From IMG/VR virus record IMGVR_UViG_3300045988_123990: 12,639 nucleotides of DNA. The stretch is one strand, 5' to 3'. How positions within the stretch are numbered: position 1 is the stretch's first letter; the number at the start of each line of letters is the position of its first letter. Positions 1,118 to 12,520 of this stretch are shown one piece after another. The stretch comes from a virus. A model generated the notes under the pieces. The model made no database searches, was not told the origin of the DNA, and worked only from the letters and a program-made list of their open reading frames with translations. A program made the position numbers and the translations under genes.

Positions 1118-3241
1118 ATGGTAGTCGCAGGATATCCAATTCTTTATTTTAAAAACTATGATTATATGCGACTATTCAATGGTGATTTTATCCGGAGATC
1201 CAATGCAGGTCATTATCTAGGTGTCTATGAAAAAATAATAACTGTTGATACGGAAACTTTTGTCTATCTTAACAAAAACATTGGCTTTGTCACGGATTGG
1301 ACAATCACGATAGAGGATGATTGTTGTATTTACGGCAACCATGTTTCTGATCTGATTGATACGATCGACAGGATTTGCACAACTTTACATGCTGACGATA
1401 GCCACCTTGTACGCTTTTATGTGCATAACTTTCCATATGACTATGTTTTTCTTCGTAACCATTTTTTCCAAAAGTGGGGGAATCCTGATAAATCACTGGC
1501 TGCTAAGACACATAAATATATTTTTATGAAATGGACAGGACAAGGCATTGAGTTCCGTGATAGTCTCATCTTGACACAAAGATCACTTGAGAAGCTTTGT
1601 AAAGACATGGGAACAACTGAAAAAGCTGTGGGAACATGGGACTATAAGAAATTCCGAACGCCAGCAAGTCCACGTACAGCAAAAGAAATAGCCTATGTCT
1701 GTACGGATACAATCAGTCTATGCAAGGCATTACGCAAATACATAGATCAGCGAGGATTTAACGTGGCGAACTGTCCGCTGACCAATACGGGCTTTATCCG
1801 GACGAACGCCCGCAGGAGAGCAAGAAAAGACAAGAAATGGAGAAAGCAATTTGAGAAAATGGCTCTGACGTTGGAGCAATACGATCAAATGCTTGACTGC
1901 TATCATGGTGGCTATACGCATGCTAATAGGTATTATGTGAATCAATTAATAAAAGGGACTGTTGAATGTTATGATTTTGCAAGCTCATACATAGCCTGGA
2001 TGTGCTATTGTAAGTTTCCTATGTCGAATTTTTGTTATACAAATAATATAACATTAAAAGACATTATGGATTTGAAAGATGATTATGCTTTTTCTGGTTA
2101 TATCAGATTAAAGAATCTGAGACTGAAAAAAGACTGTCCTATGCCCCCGCTGTCTTTTTCAAAAGCAAAAGTTTGTGTTTTTCCAGAAGCCAAAAGCAAA
2201 AAAGAACAGTTTCATGATAATCTGGATAACGGAAAGATCGTCAACGCTGATCTTGTCATCTATCCATTTACGGATCCAGATTTAGAAGTAATCCTGTCAA
2301 GCTATGATTATGAATGGGCTGACGTGTCAAAAGTAATGAGAGCTACAAAAGACTACTTGCCGGAGTGGTTTACTGATTACTTGATGGAATTGTTTTTTAA
2401 AAAATGTATCCTTAAAGGTTTGGACGAAGCTAATTATATGATATCAAAGGGGGAGCTAAATGGCATGTACGGCATGACGGTTCAGAGAATCATTCAAATC
2501 TTATGTACAGAGCTTATGGAGTCAGGAGAGTGGGAAGCAAAAGAACCAGAGGACAGGGAAAAAGAGCTTGAAAAGTTCTATCGGAACAAGAACAGCTTTA
2601 TGCCCTACCAGTGGGGGCTATGGATCACAGCGTATGCACAAGATTATCTTTTCCGGCTGGGTTCCTGCTGCCGGAGGTGGTTATATTCTGACACAGATTC
2701 CGTAAAAGGCGCAGACTGGGATCATGATAAACTGGATGCATTTAATCAATCTATAGTTAACATGTCAGAAAAAAGAAATATCGGTGTAGTAGAGTATAAG
2801 GGAAAAATTTTCCGGCTTGGAATCGCTGAGTTTGACGGAATATACAGTGAGTTTATTACAATGGGTAGCAAACGCTATTGTTACCGTCTGAAAAAAGATG
2901 CATCTTTGCATCTAACGGTCGCAGGAGTTCCAAAAGATGGTATTTACTGTTTGAATGATGATATAACAAATTTTCGAAAAGGGTTTATTTTCAAAAATGA
3001 TTTGACATTCCGCAGGAACTACCGCAGAGCGAATGATTGGCAGGATCCAAAATGGAAGATGAAAACAGAGTATCTTTTCCATGACGGAATCAATGAAATG
3101 AATATTGATGGAAGCAAGATTGAATATGGTTGTGCCATCCGGTTAACAGATACAGAATATGAATTAGATCATACAATCCCATACGATAAAGAAACAGGAT
3201 TACCATTGCCGTTTGAAATGGAAGATACCGTGTACGGATAA
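1118..3241 (+). CDS. Family-B DNA polymerase, protein-primed (phi29 gp2-like) type, 707 aa
   Basis: GGGAGG (1106-1111) lies 6 nt before the ATG. Exonuclease motifs: Exo I TVDTETF (D44/E46, nt 1247-1255), Exo II HNFPYD (N104/D108, nt 1424-1441), Exo III YVCTD (Y193/D197, nt 1694-1708). Pre-motif A YHGGYT matches phi29 YRGGFT. Polymerase motifs: motif A YDFASSY (D286, nt 1973-1975), motif B KGELNGMYG (K444), motif C YSDTDS (D525/D527, nt 2684-2701), KxY motif GSKRY. Confidence 0.95.
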   Translation: MVVAGYPILYFKNYDYMRLFNGDFIRRSNAGHYLGVYEKIITVDTETFVYLNKNIGFVTDWTITIEDDCCIYGNHVSDLIDTIDRICTTLHADDSHLVRFYVHNFPYDYVFLRNHFFQKWGNPDKSLAAKTHKYIFMKWTGQGIEFRDSLILTQRSLEKLCKDMGTTEKAVGTWDYKKFRTPASPRTAKEIAYVCTDTISLCKALRKYIDQRGFNVANCPLTNTGFIRTNARRRARKDKKWRKQFEKMALTLEQYDQMLDCYHGGYTHANRYYVNQLIKGTVECYDFASSYIAWMCYCKFPMSNFCYTNNITLKDIMDLKDDYAFSGYIRLKNLRLKKDCPMPPLSFSKAKVCVFPEAKSKKEQFHDNLDNGKIVNADLVIYPFTDPDLEVILSSYDYEWADVSKVMRATKDYLPEWFTDYLMELFFKKCILKGLDEANYMISKGELNGMYGMTVQRIIQILCTELMESGEWEAKEPEDREKELEKFYRNKNSFMPYQWGLWITAYAQDYLFRLGSCCRRWLYSDTDSVKGADWDHDKLDAFNQSIVNMSEKRNIGVVEYKGKIFRLGIAEFDGIYSEFITMGSKRYCYRLKKDASLHLTVAGVPKDGIYCLNDDITNFRKGFIFKNDLTFRRNYRRANDWQDPKWKMKTEYLFHDGINEMNIDGSKIEYGCAIRLTDTEYELDHTIPYDKETGLPLPFEMEDTVYG

Positions 3242-3808: not shown

Positions 3809-4006
3809 ATGAATCTGTCTATGGATGATGCTTATAAAGCACTTACTATCATTTCTAAAGTGTGCAGGGAAAATGAACAATGTAAATCCTGCCCATTTTC
3901 AATCACAGGAAAATGTGGGATAGTAACACAAGGTTATCCGTCTTATTGGGACATAAAAGTTCCTAACATAGAATTATTTAACCAAAGGAGAGAAACTTCA
4001 TGTTAA
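3809..4006 (+). CDS. Hypothetical Cys-rich protein, 65 aa
   Basis: ATG lies 7 nt after AAGGGGG (3795-3801). The cysteine pattern is C19-x5-C25-x2-C28-x7-C36 (CRENEQCKSCPFSITGKCG), a possible metal-binding knuckle. Confidence 0.7.
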   Translation: MNLSMDDAYKALTIISKVCRENEQCKSCPFSITGKCGIVTQGYPSYWDIKVPNIELFNQRRETSC

Positions 4007-4299
4007 AATCAAATGTAAAAATTAATTGCAGACCTTATAATGGAAACTCAAAAACAAAAGCTTTTGTTGATCTGGAACTGGACAAGACTCTTGTAATTAA
4101 AGGGTTAACACTGGTTAAGGGTAAAGACGGGCTTTTCCTGTCATTCCCAAGCACAAAAGGAAAAGATGGAAAATACTATAATTCAGTCTATTCACTTGAT
4201 AAAGAATGGACAGGGATTCTCCAGGATGCTTGTATCAAAAAATACAATGAATGCAACCAGACTTCACAGCCTACATCCTCCGGAGGTGTATTTCAATAA
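4000..4299 (+). CDS. SpoVG-fold nucleic-acid-binding protein homologue, 99 aa
   Basis: KAFVDLELDKTLVIKGLTLVKGKDGLFLSFPSTKGKDGKYYNSVYSLDKEWTGILQDACIKKY aligns by eye to the SpoVG core ([46 protein letters not shown]...IQDAVLNEY). GGAG (3987-3990) lies 9 nt before the ATG. The stop overlaps the ATPase start (TAATG). Confidence 0.7.
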   Translation: MLKSNVKINCRPYNGNSKTKAFVDLELDKTLVIKGLTLVKGKDGLFLSFPSTKGKDGKYYNSVYSLDKEWTGILQDACIKKYNECNQTSQPTSSGGVFQ

Positions 4300-5345
4300 T
4301 GAATATCTACGATAAAAATGGTTGGTTGGACGTTCCAAGGATTGTCCAGCTTGCCGATAAAAATGAAATTAACTTCATTTTCATCATTGGCGCACGTAGA
4401 ACCGGAAAAACATATGGAATTTTCCAACACTTCATTAATGATCTTTTTTCCAAAAATGAGAAGATCATCTACATGAGACGTACAAAAGAGCAACTGAAAA
4501 AAGTATTTCTTCCGGAGTTTGATCCGTGGCTGGATATCAATAAAGTTATGAACAAGTTTTTTCATTTTGAAAAACCCAGAGGTGAATACGGACGTATCAA
4601 GATCATGGAGCAAACAGAAGATGAACAAGTTTATAGGGGTGAAGCGTTTTGCCTTACATCCATGCATAACAACCGTGGATTCTCTGGATCTGATTTCTCT
4701 GAGGGGATTTATGATGAGTTCATCCCGGAGAAGATCGCTAAGTCAATCAGTGGGGAGGATGATGCTTTTCTGAATGCGGTTGAGACCATATCGGCAAACA
4801 GGGAGTTGCAGGGAAAGAAGCCGTTCCGGTGGTGGCTTGCTTCCAATTCGAACACACTGGACAACCCGATTGTACAGGCTTTTGGTTTGCTTCCAGTCTT
4901 GGAGCGAATGAAAAAGAACAAGCAAGAGTTTTCCATGTTGAGAGAGAGAGGAATCATCTTAGTTCTGATTAATGATTCCCCGATTTCAGAAAAGAAGAAA
5001 TATACTGCTTTGTATCGTGCTTTATTGGGAGATAGTGACTTTGCAAAGATGGCACTCTCAAATGAATTTGCATACGATGACGTTTCTGCTATCCGATCGG
5101 AAGATATCCGACAATACAAACTTATTTGTGTGATCGGAAAAGTTGCGATTTATGAACACAAGTCAAAAGCGCACTTGTATGTGTCGGATCATGTTTCTGG
5201 ATCTTGCAGGGACGTATTTGAAGACACACAGCATGGCAAGGATCAGTTCCGCTGCTTTTATAGCTGGATTGACAGCTATCGTCTGACAAATAGAATCAGC
5301 TATCAGAATATTTCTGTAAAATTCTATATTGACAAACTATTTTAA
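4299..5345 (+). CDS. DNA encapsidation (packaging) ATPase, phi29 gp16-like, 348 aa
   Basis: Walker A GARRTGKT (aa 31-38, nt 4389-4412) sits in FIFIIGARRTGKTYG, close to phi29 gp16 FVIGARGIGKSY as I recall it. A Walker B-like GIYDEF is present. I chose the start at ATG 4299 (TAATG coupling, GGAGGTG at 4282-4288) over the ORF-track ATG 4251, which lies inside the preceding gene. Confidence 0.9.
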   Translation: MNIYDKNGWLDVPRIVQLADKNEINFIFIIGARRTGKTYGIFQHFINDLFSKNEKIIYMRRTKEQLKKVFLPEFDPWLDINKVMNKFFHFEKPRGEYGRIKIMEQTEDEQVYRGEAFCLTSMHNNRGFSGSDFSEGIYDEFIPEKIAKSISGEDDAFLNAVETISANRELQGKKPFRWWLASNSNTLDNPIVQAFGLLPVLERMKKNKQEFSMLRERGIILVLINDSPISEKKKYTALYRALLGDSDFAKMALSNEFAYDDVSAIRSEDIRQYKLICVIGKVAIYEHKSKAHLYVSDHVSGSCRDVFEDTQHGKDQFRCFYSWIDSYRLTNRISYQNISVKFYIDKLF

Positions 5346-5358
5346 AAATTATATATTA

Positions 5359-5440
5359 GAGATAGGTCAACGTGGCTACATCGACCGCCGGAAGCGGATG
5401 CCATGGGGTGATTACCCAGAAGCGTTGACCTATTTTAATT
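5359..5440 (+). terminator. GC-rich branched stem-loop (three-way junction) plus U tract: intrinsic terminator and/or small structured RNA
   Basis: 5362-5372 ATAGGTCAACG pairs perfectly with 5423-5433 CGTTGACCTAT (11 bp). Inside are two hairpins. The first spans 5373-5403 (TGG/CCA, CAT/ATG, CCGC/GCGG, loop CGGAA). The second spans 5404-5418 (TGGG/CCCA). TATTTTAATTTT follows. The element lies in the ATPase-scaffold intergenic gap. Confidence 0.5.
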
Positions 5441-5471
5441 TTCAATTCCGGCAGAAAAGGAGAAAAAGAAA

Positions 5472-5807
5472 ATGAATGTAAATGAAATTTTAGAACTCGG
5501 AAAGCTTGGATTTTCAAAAAATGAGATCATTGGGATTCTGAACGCTCAGAACATGACTGGGCTTAATCAGATCACAAGCCCACAGGGTACAGAACAGATT
5601 CAGAATCTGGGGCAGCAGGTTGCAAATACTCCACTGAATCTGACAGCACAGACAGGACAGGATGCAACCAATACAGCTCTGCTGACAGCAATCAATACTC
5701 TGACTGCTACGTTACAGGCTGGGAACCTGTCAGCTTCCGGAAAAACTGGATCTGCTCCACGCACTTCGGATAACGTGGCAGAAGATCTTATGAAACTTAT
5801 GAATTAA
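5472..5807 (+). CDS. Candidate scaffolding protein, 111 aa
   Basis: The gene lies immediately upstream of the major capsid gene, as phi29 gp7 does. It is small, with a helical N-terminus and a Q/T/N/A-rich low-complexity centre. AAAGGAGA (5457-5464) precedes the ATG. The call rests on position and composition only. Confidence 0.45.
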   Translation: MNVNEILELGKLGFSKNEIIGILNAQNMTGLNQITSPQGTEQIQNLGQQVANTPLNLTAQTGQDATNTALLTAINTLTATLQAGNLSASGKTGSAPRTSDNVAEDLMKLMN

Positions 5808-5819
5808 GGGGGAAATAAA

Positions 5820-7016
5820 ATGGCAAATAGTTTAGTCGTACAGGATGCATATTTGATCATTAATGACCTGTACAAGATGGCTACCGGACGGGAGAATATC
5901 AAGGCAGTAGATACAAGTTCTTTTGTAGCTGTTGGTGAAACCATGCTGCGGACAGGTGTAGAACCAACACTGAAAGCACTCAGTCAGTGGTGTGGACGAA
6001 CCTATTTTGAAATGGAAAAATACAGATCCGGAGTGTTTCGTTCTATCATCGAGAATAATGAGAGATGGGGAGCTATCACCCGTGAGATCATCTCACTTCC
6101 ATTGGATGCAGAAGCATCCCAGGATTGGAATACAGATCTGAATGAAAACCAGCTCGCCGATGGTCAGTCTGTCGATATGTACAAAATTAATGCACCAAAA
6201 GTAGTGGAGTTGAAATTCTATGGTTCAAAACTTTTGCAATCTCATATAACACGTTTCCGGGATCAGCTGGCATTGGCTTTTTCCAACGAAGCAGAGTTTC
6301 TTATGTTTGTAACTTCCTATATGACAGCTTACTATAATGACATTGAATCAAGAAATGAAGCAAAACGCAGACTGACGGTGCTTAACTTCATGGCTGGTAT
6401 CTCCTCGCTTGGCACAAATGAGGTAGATCTTGTTAAGGAATATAACACAGCCTACGGTACAGAGCTTACAAGAAAGCAGCTTTTAAGTTCGGAACATCAC
6501 AGAGACTTCATGGCTTTTGTGGTTGCCAGGATTAAAAAAGATTCAAAGAAGATGCAGGATCGCACAACAAAATATCATATGAATCTGACTGGAAAAGATA
6601 TTTTGAGATTCACTCGACCAGAGAACCAGAAACTGCTTATGTACACAGATTTCTGGATTGACAGCGAAACACAGGTATTCCCGACAGTCTTTTCTGATGA
6701 ACAGCTTAAAATCGCTGACAAAGAGTTGGTAAACGGCTGGCAGGAGTTCGACAGCCCTGCGATCAATATTACCCCAAACATCATTGATGCTGATGGAGTT
6801 TCAAAAAAAGCAACAACAGCGGTATCTCTTCCTTATGTGCTTGGTCTTTTATATGATCGTCGTGCAATGGGAGTAAATAACCAGTGGATGTATTCCGCAG
6901 CTACGCCATTCAATGCAGCAGGTGGTTATTACAATATCTTTGACCACTATCGTTTTAACGCTTGGAACAACTTCACACACAATGCAATTCTTTATGTACT
7001 GGGGGAGGGAGTATAA
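5820..7016 (+). CDS. Major capsid protein, phi29 gp8-like, 398 aa
   Basis: The C-terminal block GLLYDRRAMGVNNQWMYSAATPFNAAGGYYNIFDHYRFNAWNNFTHNAILYV parallels phi29 gp8 [51 protein letters not shown] (from memory). The N-terminal AVDTSSFVAVGETML parallels gp8 ATANNVAEVGAGIL. AAGGGGGA precedes the ATG. Confidence 0.85.
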   Translation: MANSLVVQDAYLIINDLYKMATGRENIKAVDTSSFVAVGETMLRTGVEPTLKALSQWCGRTYFEMEKYRSGVFRSIIENNERWGAITREIISLPLDAEASQDWNTDLNENQLADGQSVDMYKINAPKVVELKFYGSKLLQSHITRFRDQLALAFSNEAEFLMFVTSYMTAYYNDIESRNEAKRRLTVLNFMAGISSLGTNEVDLVKEYNTAYGTELTRKQLLSSEHHRDFMAFVVARIKKDSKKMQDRTTKYHMNLTGKDILRFTRPENQKLLMYTDFWIDSETQVFPTVFSDEQLKIADKELVNGWQEFDSPAINITPNIIDADGVSKKATTAVSLPYVLGLLYDRRAMGVNNQWMYSAATPFNAAGGYYNIFDHYRFNAWNNFTHNAILYVLGEGV

Positions 7017-9551: not shown

Positions 9552-10472
9552 ATGTGGACACCGGTTAATTTTGATAAAATCAACATATGCACTAATTACT
9601 TCCAACCATCCGGCATAAAAGTTGACAGTTTATATACTGATACATTTGATCGGATGCTTTACGAGCGTGTATGTTCTATACTTGATATAACATACAATGG
9701 AAACATTGACATTGACTATTTCAAATATTGCCTGCTTTTTGGGGGGTATATTTGCATCACAAAGACAGATCTTTATGGAATGATCGCACAGTACCCAATG
9801 CTGACAGGGTACAATATTTACTTTAAGCCAACCACAGCTACTATACACACGTATGCAAGTAATGCTACAATTGACATGGAGGACATGGAGATCGGAAAAG
9901 ATTGCTCAGTCATCTATCTCAGACCAACTTTCTGTGGAATTGGAGATATTATTGGATTTTATAGTTATAAACTGGCACTTGTAGCAAGTGCTTTTGACAT
10001 GAATGTTTTTAATTCAAAGCTTGCATTTCTGATAGCTGCGAAAAATAAGGCAGCAGCTCAGACATTGAAAAAAATCTATGATAGCATACAAGCTGGTAAT
10101 CCAGTTGAAGCTTTTGATGTATCAATTAAAACTGAGGACAGACAGGGAAGCAAACAGGATGCATGGGAAAGCTTCAACAAGGATCTGAAGCAAAACTTTA
10201 TTGCACCGGAGCTGATTGAAGTATTTGAAAAGCTTCTGGATCAGTTCGACACAGAAGTCGGTATCCCGTCCGTCGGATCAGATAAAAAAGAACGTCTGAA
10301 TGTGCTTGAAACAAGCAAGAATGATGCAGAATCCGTGACACGGTTAACAACCTGGCTTGAGACAATGCAAGCAGGAGTTGACATGACAAACAGACTTTAT
10401 CCGGAGATGAATCTGTCAATCAAGATCAGAAGTTATGAAACTGCGGAGGTGAAAAGTTATGGGACTTTATAA
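9552..10472 (+). CDS. Portal / head-tail connector (upper collar), phi29 gp10-like, 306 aa
   Basis: The size matches gp10 (about 309 aa). [26 protein letters not shown] parallels gp10 [36 protein letters not shown]...[30 protein letters not shown]...[14 protein letters not shown] parallels gp10 MGVVIYNND...[30 protein letters not shown]...LKQVYNQYEGNAPV (from memory). Confidence 0.8.
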   Translation: [306 protein letters not shown]

Positions 10473-12418: not shown

Positions 12419-12430
12419 ATATAAAATATG

Positions 12431-12466
12431 ATAGCCCAGCATACCGCTGGGCTATTGTTTTATTTT
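12431..12466 (+). terminator. Rho-independent terminator closing the late operon (possibly bidirectional)
   Basis: A perfect 10-bp stem ATAGCCCAGC (12431-12440) / GCTGGGCTAT (12446-12455) carries the loop ATACC and is followed by TGTTTTATTTT. On the minus strand the hairpin is followed by CATATTTTATATTT. Confidence 0.8.
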
Positions 12467-12520
12467 GCATCTACCAAAAGCTTTCTTGATTTTCTTATGA
12501 TATATAGTCATTTCAAATAC

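Follow-up and report, generated by a model that had tools for sequence, protein, structure and literature searches.

The window analysed in this study is a stretch of 12,639 nucleotides (IMG/VR record IMGVR_UViG_3300045988_123990), which represents almost the whole genome of a 12.6-kb gut phi29-like podophage. The human-faecal phage record MT836115 showed 88% identity to the window, and the nearest cultured relatives by ATPase are the Amedibacillus phages AD70P2/P3 (Guelinviridae, 12.3 kb). An intergenic gap of 126 nt separates the end of the packaging ATPase ORF (5345) from the start of the next ORF (5472), and the RNA element described here lies in this gap. The tRNA/tmRNA scan of the window returned none. 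The genes and expression signals around the element are listed below.

1118–3241, plus strand: family-B DNA polymerase (PHROG match)
4000–4299: gene of a SpoVG-like protein
4251–5345, plus strand: packaging ATPase (terminase, phrog_2150; PHROG match)
5329–5357, plus strand: promoter of the sigma-A/sigma-70 type, with −35 TTGACA at 5329–5334, a 17-nt spacer and −10 TATATT at 5352–5357 (score 11/12)
5458–5474, plus strand: Shine-Dalgarno AGGAG and ATG (5472) of the putative scaffold gene, the first late gene (from the sequence and the ORF)
5472–5807, plus strand: 111-aa protein without annotation in the scaffold position, putative scaffold (ORF)
5820–7016, plus strand: major head protein, MCP (PHROG match)
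9552–10472, plus strand: upper collar connector (PHROG match)

The gene content is that of a phi29-like phage, with a gp16-type ATPase, a phi29-type connector and MCP, and a polymerase of the protein-primed type. Relatives encode PF05894 Podovirus_Gp16, PF05352, PF25622 and PF03175. The N-terminus of the window connector is without the basic RKR motif of phi29; little weight was given to this, as cryo-EM revealed no close contact between pRNA and connector (PMC6542822).

The TTGACA-17-TATATT promoter is the joint best match in the whole window, the other being TTGACA-16-TAGAAT (5269–5296). It overlaps the last ATPase codons and ends 5–7 nt before the outer helix of the element, which places the predicted transcription start at about 5364–5365, at the 5' end of that helix. 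The same arrangement, 5–7 nt upstream of the helix, was observed in every clade. The phi29 promoter A1 (TTGACA-17-TATAAT) ends 7 nt before helix A of the pRNA. The element and the segments next to it comprise the following parts.

5362–5372, plus strand: 5' strand of the outer helix (helix A, or P1), ATAGGTCAACG, paired with 5423–5433
5374–5376, plus strand: 5' strand GGC of helix C (P2a), paired with GCC at 5400–5402 (100% paired)
5377–5384, plus strand: 5'-side bulge UACAUCGA, corresponding to the CE bulge, of which AUCG at 5380–5383 pairs with 5409–5412
5385–5397, plus strand: helix E (P2b), CCGC/GCGG, with the apical loop CGGAA at 5389–5393 (100% paired)
5400–5402, plus strand: 3' strand GCC of helix C (P2a), supported by covariation
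5405–5417, plus strand: helix D (P3), GGG (5405–5407)/CCC (5415–5417) with the loop GUGAUUA, supported by covariation
5409–5412, plus strand: D-loop segment UGAU, partner of the bulge (supported by covariation)
5418–5422, plus strand: junction strand AGAAG, the AA of which is invariant in the 51-sequence alignment
5423–5433, plus strand: 3' strand of the outer helix, CGTTGACCTAT, paired with 5362–5372
5433–5442, plus strand: U-rich tract TTTTAATTTT, directly after the outer helix (from the sequence)
5446–5452, plus strand: TTCCGGC, complement of GCCGGAA at 5387–5393 (equalled in 0/1000 shuffles)

The outer helix comprises 11 perfect base pairs, and A-U and G-U pairs stretch it to 5359–5436. 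A single spacer A stands between AUCG and helix E. The folding energy of the 72-nt element was −29.0 kcal/mol (z = −3.6) and none of 200 shuffles was equally stable, so the fold is better than chance; folding of the region had been proposed as a check in a first-pass annotation of this DNA. Structure was missing from the other two intergenic regions of appreciable size (z = −0.4 and +0.8), and no further structured non-coding region was found in the window, in accordance with the earlier statement that no other pRNA candidate is evident in the genome. The first-pass annotation had described an 11-bp outer helix around two hairpins followed by a U tract. Its coordinates and sequences for the element agree with the window, and the perfect outer pairing, the loop CGGAA (5389–5393), the second hairpin (GGG/CCC, 5405–5417) and the U tract just 3' of the outer helix, placed here at 5433–5442, were all recovered. 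Its first hairpin, drawn with about 10 bp and two 3-nt bulges, had to be redrawn, as covariation backs only GGC/GCC and CCGC/GCGG. The middle helix AUC:GAU of that drawing is broken in the L067 relative and in the clade with about 40% ATPase identity described below (the 40% clade), and its bases pair with the D loop instead.

The conservation of the element was analysed in relatives recovered with the ATPase as query, which gave 80 IMG/VR loci in identity tiers of about 93%, 65% and 40%; in the first two tiers the element lies 3' of the ATPase. Two alignments were used, A1 with 51 distinct sequences and the wider A2 with 21 sequences. A1 aligns easily, the interior being nearly invariant and the sequence of the outer helix varying freely (versions among relatives are GGUCAACG, GGUCAGAG, AAGGGAAAAC and AAGGAAGCG). 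The three-way-junction structure was paired in 97% of the cells of A1 and showed double changes in 13/21 pairs, so the compensatory changes that the first-pass annotation had made a test of the element are present among its relatives. The observed paired percentage and covariation score were matched in 0/500 shuffles of A1, and slid controls gave about 40% pairing. RNAalifold predicted the same fold on the relatives. Considering the helices individually, compensatory double changes were found in 9/11 pairs of the outer helix in A1 (10/11 in the wider set) and in 2/3 pairs of helix C in A1 (3/3 in A2). Helix E showed compensatory changes from C-G to U-A, and helix D, which is invariant in A1, covaries to GGAG/CUCC in the 40% clade. 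The E loop CGGAA is invariant in A1 and is represented in other clades by CAGAA, CGAA, UGGAA and GUGGAA. CsrA-type GGA sites were considered as an explanation and set aside, the GGA of the loop being unconserved (CAGAA, UUGGGAG). Taken on its comparative sequence evidence, the element is a real, conserved and previously uncatalogued structured RNA family.

Comparison of the identity tiers also revealed that the bulge segment AUCG (5380–5383) is complementary to UGAU (5409–5412) in the D loop. Across the 21 sequences of the wider alignment, bulge columns 20–23 and loop columns 52–55 were 100% paired and 2/4 pairs were compensatory, with swaps from A-U to G-C and from U-A to C-G. The versions of the bulge and D loop seen across the tiers include AUCR:UGAU, ACCA:UGGU and GCCA:UGGC, and distant versions are UCCAC:GUGGA (L167), GCUA:UAGC (L178), GUCG:CGAC (L180), GAGU:ACUC (L165) and AUCC:GGAU (AD70P2). 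The 17 clade representatives carry 15 distinct pairing sequences. At least four Watson-Crick pairs were formed in 14 of these 17, against 3.1 on average and 8 at most for shuffled loops, and mismatched combinations of bulge and loop reached 4 bp in just 13% of cases. The pairing is weaker, at 3 bp, in L162 and L179. The pattern of changes thus shows a four-base pairing of the bulge, next to helix E, with the D loop. The promoter, this pairing and the family of relatives are not part of the first-pass annotation.

A larger form of the element was found in the Clostridium perfringens phage phiCPV4, where the promoter and then a 108-nt version lie in a gap of 213 nt that separates the SpoVG-like gene from the scaffold gene. 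This form has a helix A of 13+7 bp, a helix C of 10 bp with one mismatch and a helix E of 3 bp, together with the bulge CGCCA, a 6-nt E loop GUGGAA, a 6-nt junction and a helix D loop UUGGCA; GCCA of the bulge pairs with UGGC of the D loop. In the phages phiZP2 and CPS2, helices C and A have changed in a compensatory way, and no change breaks a pair except for a shifted single mismatch. Helix A of phiCPV4 is followed by neither a U tract nor a terminator, hence a free RNA would need processing. Judged by its predicted helices, the 108-nt form approaches the dimensions of the phi29 pRNA.

The covariance model gave exactly one copy in the window and 24 matches in 24 full contigs, one in each; model R1 is too narrow and misses L165, L180 and phiCPV4. 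All phages in which the element was seen have a gp16-type ATPase, MCP and connector of the phi29 type, and a family-B polymerase of the protein-primed type, and the element is present in many clades of small gut phi29-like phages, including the cultured AD70P2 and phiCPV4. The degenerate core pattern, searched against 185,579 bacterial and archaeal species genomes (one each), gave one chance match only, of 12 bits and without the outer helix. This near-absence from cellular genomes argues against a host-derived riboswitch. A search of IMG/VR with the L162 ATPase gave no matches, and several contigs recovered by MCP homology are cut off at the scaffold or MCP gene, which makes absence of the element from these uninformative.

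The genomic context of the element differs between clades. It lies between the ATPase and the scaffold gene in the window, clade 2, the L067-like phages, AD70P2 and L180, and in L179 it stands between the ATPase and the gene of a small membrane protein, which is followed by the scaffold gene. In L162 and L167 the ATPase and the holin flank the element, and the structural operon is encoded on the opposite strand. In the 40% tier, L178 and phiCPV4 the element heads the late operon and is distant from the ATPase; in the 40% tier it sits at the other genome end, with TTGACA-17-TATATT before it and scaffold and MCP after it. The element of L165 comes after the ATPase at the end of a rightward operon, with its own promoter and no gene downstream on the same strand, and beyond it lie a separate strong bidirectional terminator and convergent genes. 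It follows from the L165 arrangement that the RNA cannot be only a leader.

The element was compared with the phi29 pRNA (RF00044, Phage_pRNA), the consensus structure line of which was taken from the RF00044 match to the phi29 sequence (145 bits). In phi29 the order is helix A, a 1-nt junction, helix C of 5+4 bp, a bulge of 9 nt that is confined to the 5' side and reaches up to helix E, helix E of 4 bp with a 6-nt loop, a 3-nt junction, and helix D of 6 bp with a 5-nt loop. These parts recur in the window element in unchanged order but shorter, namely helix A of 11–14 bp, helix C of 3 bp, an 8-nt bulge, helix E of 4 bp with a 5-nt loop, and helix D of 3 bp with a 7-nt loop. As in domain I of the phi29 pRNA, the outer helix is made of the 5' and 3' ends and leads into a three-way junction with two arms. 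A consensus promoter abuts the element, each genome holds one copy, and the phages have a gp16-type ATPase, as is the case for phi29. In both RNAs, four bulge bases by helix E can form Watson-Crick pairs with the D loop, and in the element family this complementarity covaries. The intermolecular AACC:GGUU pairing of phi29 joins the 3' end of the bulge to the D loop (PMC5066667), and some relatives use AACCA:UGGUU in its place.

The differences are equally clear. Known pRNAs have 117–174 nt, whereas the element has 72–78 nt, about 40% smaller, and is without domain II. Its helices C and D have 3 bp each, compared with 9 bp and 6 bp in phi29. Helix A of phi29 is about 25 bp long with a CCA bulge that binds gp16 (PMC5066667), while that of the element has 9–14 bp, no bulge and, unlike the phi29 pRNA, itself carries a U tract. 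The element stands directly upstream of late genes and the phi29 pRNA gene stands at the genome end. The secondary-structure layout of a pRNA and the covarying complementarity of about 4 bp between bulge and D loop were found, and its size, long bulged helix A and domain II were not. The Rfam check that the first-pass annotation had named, pRNA family included, came back empty on the element: at E ≤ 10, RF00044 gave no match in the window, phiCPV4, AD70P2, L178 or L179, and all 4227 Rfam families (among them pRNA, hammerhead, twister, pistol, hatchet and riboswitches) gave nothing on the element in the window and four relatives. No report of a pRNA in Guelinviridae or gut phages was present in the literature searched.

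The layout was also expressed as a descriptor with two arms inside an outer helix of 6 bp or more, in which arm 1 carries a 5' bulge of 4 nt or more facing no more than 2 nt, and the bulge/D-loop complement measures 4 bp or more. The descriptor recovered the phi29 pRNA and the window element, each as the only match. It replaced a first descriptor based on the MFE structure, which missed the window element and several relatives, the MFE structure being different from the consensus. Across 20 phage genomes the bare descriptor gave 59 matches in real and 46 in dinucleotide-shuffled sequences and is unspecific alone; once ΔG ≤ −18 kcal/mol and a directly adjoining promoter scoring 9/12 or better were also required, six real and no shuffled matches were obtained. 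The AD70P2 element falls slightly under the energy cut. No strong match was seen in Cp-1, Athos or CI644P5. For the Streptococcus phage Cp-1 a putative pRNA was proposed from structure alone (Martin et al. 1996, as cited in PMC6266182), and according to PMC6266182 a covariance model of Bacillus-phage pRNAs failed to find the Cp-1 RNA reliably. The putative Cp-1 RNA resembles the element in belonging to a phi29-like phage outside Bacillus and in being poorly found by a pRNA covariance model.

The transcription unit was examined for its 3' side. The outer helix and TTTTAATTTT form a stable stem with a directly adjoining U tract, which is the signature of an intrinsic terminator in the window phage and not a family-wide one; most clades have a U-rich tail behind the helix, whereas phiCPV4, L167 and L172 have no convincing or usable U tract. 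The terminator consensus scan omitted the outer helix, the loop of which is longer than 8 nt. The U-rich tract at 5433–5442 is probably both the 3' end of a small RNA and a leaky terminator, judging from its place after the helix. With the promoter at the helix and the U tract after it, the predicted unit consists of a promoter, an RNA of about 75 nt and a terminator. The window promoter scan gave no promoter match between the element and the scaffold ATG or the late genes. Outside L165, with no separate promoter to serve the late genes, transcription of their mRNA has to pass through the element, so that termination there must be leaky or regulated.

These observations were combined in a model in which the element is a miniature small RNA of the pRNA type, the outer helix of which doubles as a leaky terminator between early and late transcription; the chances of this reading are put at about even. 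Host RNA polymerase would start at the 5329–5357 promoter, about 7 nt before the outer helix, and the predicted RNA of about 75 nt would close its 5' and 3' ends into helix A. The RNA would fold into a three-way junction in which arm 1 is formed by helix C, the 5' bulge, helix E and the loop CGGAA, and arm 2 by helix D with its loop. Helix A and the U tract may terminate the RNA in the window phage, and a leaky stop would set the ratio of small RNA to late mRNA and close the early operon. By analogy with phi29, the pairing of bulge and D loop would link neighbouring molecules into a ring on the prohead, and helix A would present the gp16-type ATPase for DNA packaging.

The pRNA-type reading is favoured by the topology with its covarying pairing, the promoter, the restriction to phi29-like phages, the single copy, the L165 arrangement and the phiCPV4 form. 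It is weakened by the missing RF00044 match, the small size, the short unbulged helix A and the near-constant proximity to late genes, and the downstream complement of helix E in the window clade has no counterpart in pRNA biology. The first-pass annotation had offered a very small pRNA analogue as one of three options and called it speculative; it is the option best backed by the comparative data, namely layout, covarying pairing and promoter, and the missing RF00044 match and the small size speak against it. The stronger statement, that the element is a working prohead RNA of about 75 nt, the smallest natural one, and belongs to a family found widely among the small phi29-like phages that infect gut Firmicutes, with the cultured AD70P2 and the C. 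perfringens Guelinviridae as members, is put forward tentatively on the comparative evidence, at slightly less than even chances.

To our knowledge, pRNA is the only RNA that is an essential part of a viral DNA-packaging motor. If the pRNA-type reading is true, RNA-dependent packaging would be a general and probably ancestral trait of phi29-like phages and not an oddity of Bacillus phages, beyond which it may extend. The motor RNA and the structural mRNAs would in that case come from a single promoter, and helix A would also gate late transcription. Reviews call the pRNA unique to phi29 and related Bacillus phages, and the docking of the short ATPase on the portal in other phi29-like phages is left unexplained there (PMC11476376, PMC5066667). 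A covariation-supported family with pRNA topology that includes two sets of cultured phages would make this docking question directly testable. A natural version of 72 nt would also give structural studies and RNA nanotechnology a minimal pRNA scaffold.

Among the other explanations, a cis-acting leader or attenuator of the late operon is the main rival and is judged rather unlikely. Here a constitutive promoter and a terminator would keep the late genes off until the pseudoknotted core binds a phage factor that allows read-through later, with a logic like that of lambda PR'-tR'-Q or N/nut; the SpoVG-like protein (4000–4299) is one candidate for the factor, and the SpoVG-family gene is conserved across these phages. 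The lambda PR' promoter is strong and constitutive and makes the short terminated 6S transcript ending at the tR' terminator, and the Q antiterminator then gives access to the late genes. The element resembles PR'-tR' in having promoter and terminator within about 75 nt, the late structural and lysis genes beyond, and a short terminated RNA as default. Lambda differs in needing no conserved tertiary fold of the RNA, and here no Q-like gene was identified and one clade is without a downstream gene. The attenuator explanation draws on the late gene that stands on the same strand 20–70 nt downstream in all clades but one, being scaffold in the window, clade 2, the L067-like phages, the 40% clade, AD70P2 and phiCPV4, a small membrane protein followed by scaffold in L178 and L179, and the holin in L162 and L167. 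The missing promoter between element and late genes agrees with it, as does the fact that in the 40% clade and L178 the element travelled with the late operon and not with the ATPase. Against it stand L165, the unconvincing U tracts of phiCPV4, L167 and L172, and L167 again, in which no second copy occurs at the structural operon within the contig (its end is incomplete). No conserved pairing alternative to the outer helix, as an antiterminator would form, was found among the relatives. Mutually exclusive terminator and antiterminator pairings, a constant upstream position and presence in cellular genomes, which would mark a riboswitch or attenuator, were each missing from the data. The attenuator explanation also leaves unexplained why a pRNA topology appears in exactly the phage group that uses pRNA. 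If it were right, the element would still be a new and widespread class of cis-regulatory RNA gating the late genes of the smallest tailed phages.

A trans-acting small RNA, which would act as antisense on its own read-through mRNA through 5387–5393/5446–5452 or as a decoy against a host defence or RNA-binding protein, appears improbable. The layout of promoter, RNA and terminator suits such an RNA, and so does the downstream complement. GCCGGAA (5387–5393), made of two helix E bases and the apical loop, is the exact complement of TTCCGGC (5446–5452), 5 nt before AGGAG, as had been noticed on first inspection; the comparison was made with 1000 shuffles of the downstream 60 nt, and the match of 7–8 nt upstream of the Shine-Dalgarno sequence is non-random in the window clade and in L178 (8 bp). 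C-to-U variants of the segment in L039 and L055 retain G-U pairing. The complement is weaker in clade 2 and L174 and most clades do without it, although all share the core fold. GRCAGAAAGGA, a portion of the downstream segment, is kept as ribosome-binding-site context whatever the sequence of helix E, and neither a target nor a partner was identified. The first-pass annotation had further considered this 7-nt pairing as a possible terminator/antiterminator switch. Three observations speak against that reading: the complement lies 3' of the terminator, rivals helix E and not the outer helix, and is clade-specific. As it competes with helix E and sits beyond the terminator, the pairing is not a classical antiterminator, and on its distribution among the clades it is treated as an accessory feature specific to the clade.

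An elaborate intrinsic terminator and/or a stabiliser at the 5' end of the mRNA, with no further specific function, is held to be very improbable. The branched terminator of the first-pass annotation survives in its outer helix and U tract at the early/late boundary; the stem is stable from the predicted +1 and the U-rich tract comes next. It leaves unexplained the relatives without a U tract, the interior that is nearly invariant and far more conserved than the outer helix, and the covarying tertiary pairing. L165 has a separate strong terminator directly past the element, and in the 40% clade a simple hairpin terminates after the ATPase gene. A metabolite-sensing riboswitch controlling the late genes, which a compact pseudoknotted three-way junction with highly conserved unpaired bases and an outer helix coincident with the terminator stem might recall, can practically be dismissed in view of the empty Rfam scan, the core pattern absent from cellular genomes bar the one chance match, an outer helix of 9–14 bp that is stable without ligand and has no competing structure, and L165 with no gene to regulate.

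Returning to the pRNA-type reading, the geometry of the pairing was considered. The pentamer ring of the phi29 pRNA has an inner diameter of 85 Å (PMC6542822), and by our own estimate a pentamer whose helices C and D have 3 bp each would fall far short of this; hence the ring would have to contain more subunits, or the pairing would be within one molecule. With helices C and D so short, an intramolecular (H-type) pseudoknot looks sterically possible in the mini form. A hammerhead was rejected by eye, the junction strands being 1, 2 and 5 nt long and CUGAUGA missing. The THF-I riboswitch and natural hammerheads are three-way junctions closed by a loop-bulge pseudoknot. Unlike these, the element has no Rfam match and no hammerhead core and is absent from cellular genomes; the tie between internal loop and hairpin loop is shared, and this would be the fold class of the element if the pairing is intramolecular.

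The sequence between the RNA element and the putative scaffold gene was compared in the related phage loci. In clade 2a (L056, L064 and L129), the 3' strand of the outer helix, UUCCCCUUAA, was repeated 15-35 nt past the element, ahead of the SD, and a complement of helix E, CAUCCGUUUUU, was found in the same interval. From their sequence, these two segments would allow a quite different fold of the read-through mRNA. At L067, CCCGUGAC lying 3' of the element was complementary to GUCACGGG inside it. The first-pass annotation had drawn attention to a 7-nt complementarity in the window between GCCGGAA (5387-5393) and TTCCGGC (5446-5452). Around the scaffold ribosome-binding site, the window (5453-5463) and the related loci L067, L172 and L174 share the motif GRCAGAAAGGA at the same position. 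It is conserved across clades that differ in their RNA elements, so that part of the 7-nt complement may have been kept for translation.

The promoters ahead of the element revealed a second match, located within the ATPase gene and 60 nt upstream of the first promoter (5329-5357).

Window 5269-5296, + strand: near-consensus promoter match TTGACA-16-TAGAAT (11/12).

This match was kept in the 93% clade, which may reflect coding constraint; RNA begun here would carry a 5' extension ahead of the outer helix. At the related locus L041, the promoter segment TTGACAAATTATTCAAATAATCTTATA was tandemly duplicated (x2) before the element, about 20 nt past the ATPase stop.

A gene directly upstream of the ATPase gene, and overlapping it, was assigned to the SpoVG family.

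Window 4000-4299, + strand: SpoVG-family protein, 99 aa (PF04026, 57.5 bits).

In most related phages, as in C. perfringens Guelinviridae, its homologues adjoin either the ATPase gene or the RNA element. SpoVG proteins bind nucleic acids, which makes this one a candidate partner for the element RNA.

Structured RNAs possibly related to phi29 pRNA or to the element were found in two other phages.

L186 (Enterococcus phage Athos), about 4612-4770, + strand: promoter TTTACA-17-TAAAAT driving a structured RNA of ~150 nt.
L181 (MT835901), 3817-3914, + strand: match to the layout descriptor, 98 nt, -36.5 kcal/mol.

The Athos RNA has a long outer helix (z = -3.5), a four-way junction in the MFE fold and a strong terminator at its end, and lies directly upstream of a separate scaffold-gene promoter; bulge-loop pairing was looked for in this RNA and none was found. 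It may be a pRNA-like gene of another phi29-like lineage. The L181 match, 3' of the polymerase gene, has a 14-bp outer helix and the bulge/D-loop complement AUGAA:UUCAU; no promoter abuts it and a possible 37-aa ORF shares part of its sequence, which leaves its membership of the element family uncertain. In Clostridium phage CPS2 (L189, 70-192; record 1337-1459), the 40-aa 'hypothetical protein' CPS2_5 is annotated over the conserved 108-nt RNA structure and is probably a spurious ORF call.

Two further RNA features were observed, one close to one end of the genome in a related gut phage and one 3' of the last ORF of the window.

L179 (MT836263), 12447-12510, - strand: type II hammerhead ribozyme-like match (E = 0.011; 32.2 bits, below the gathering score of 37).
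Window 12428-12458: strong bidirectional terminator-like hairpin, 13 pairs, then TTTATTTT.

The hairpin is probably where the late operon ends.
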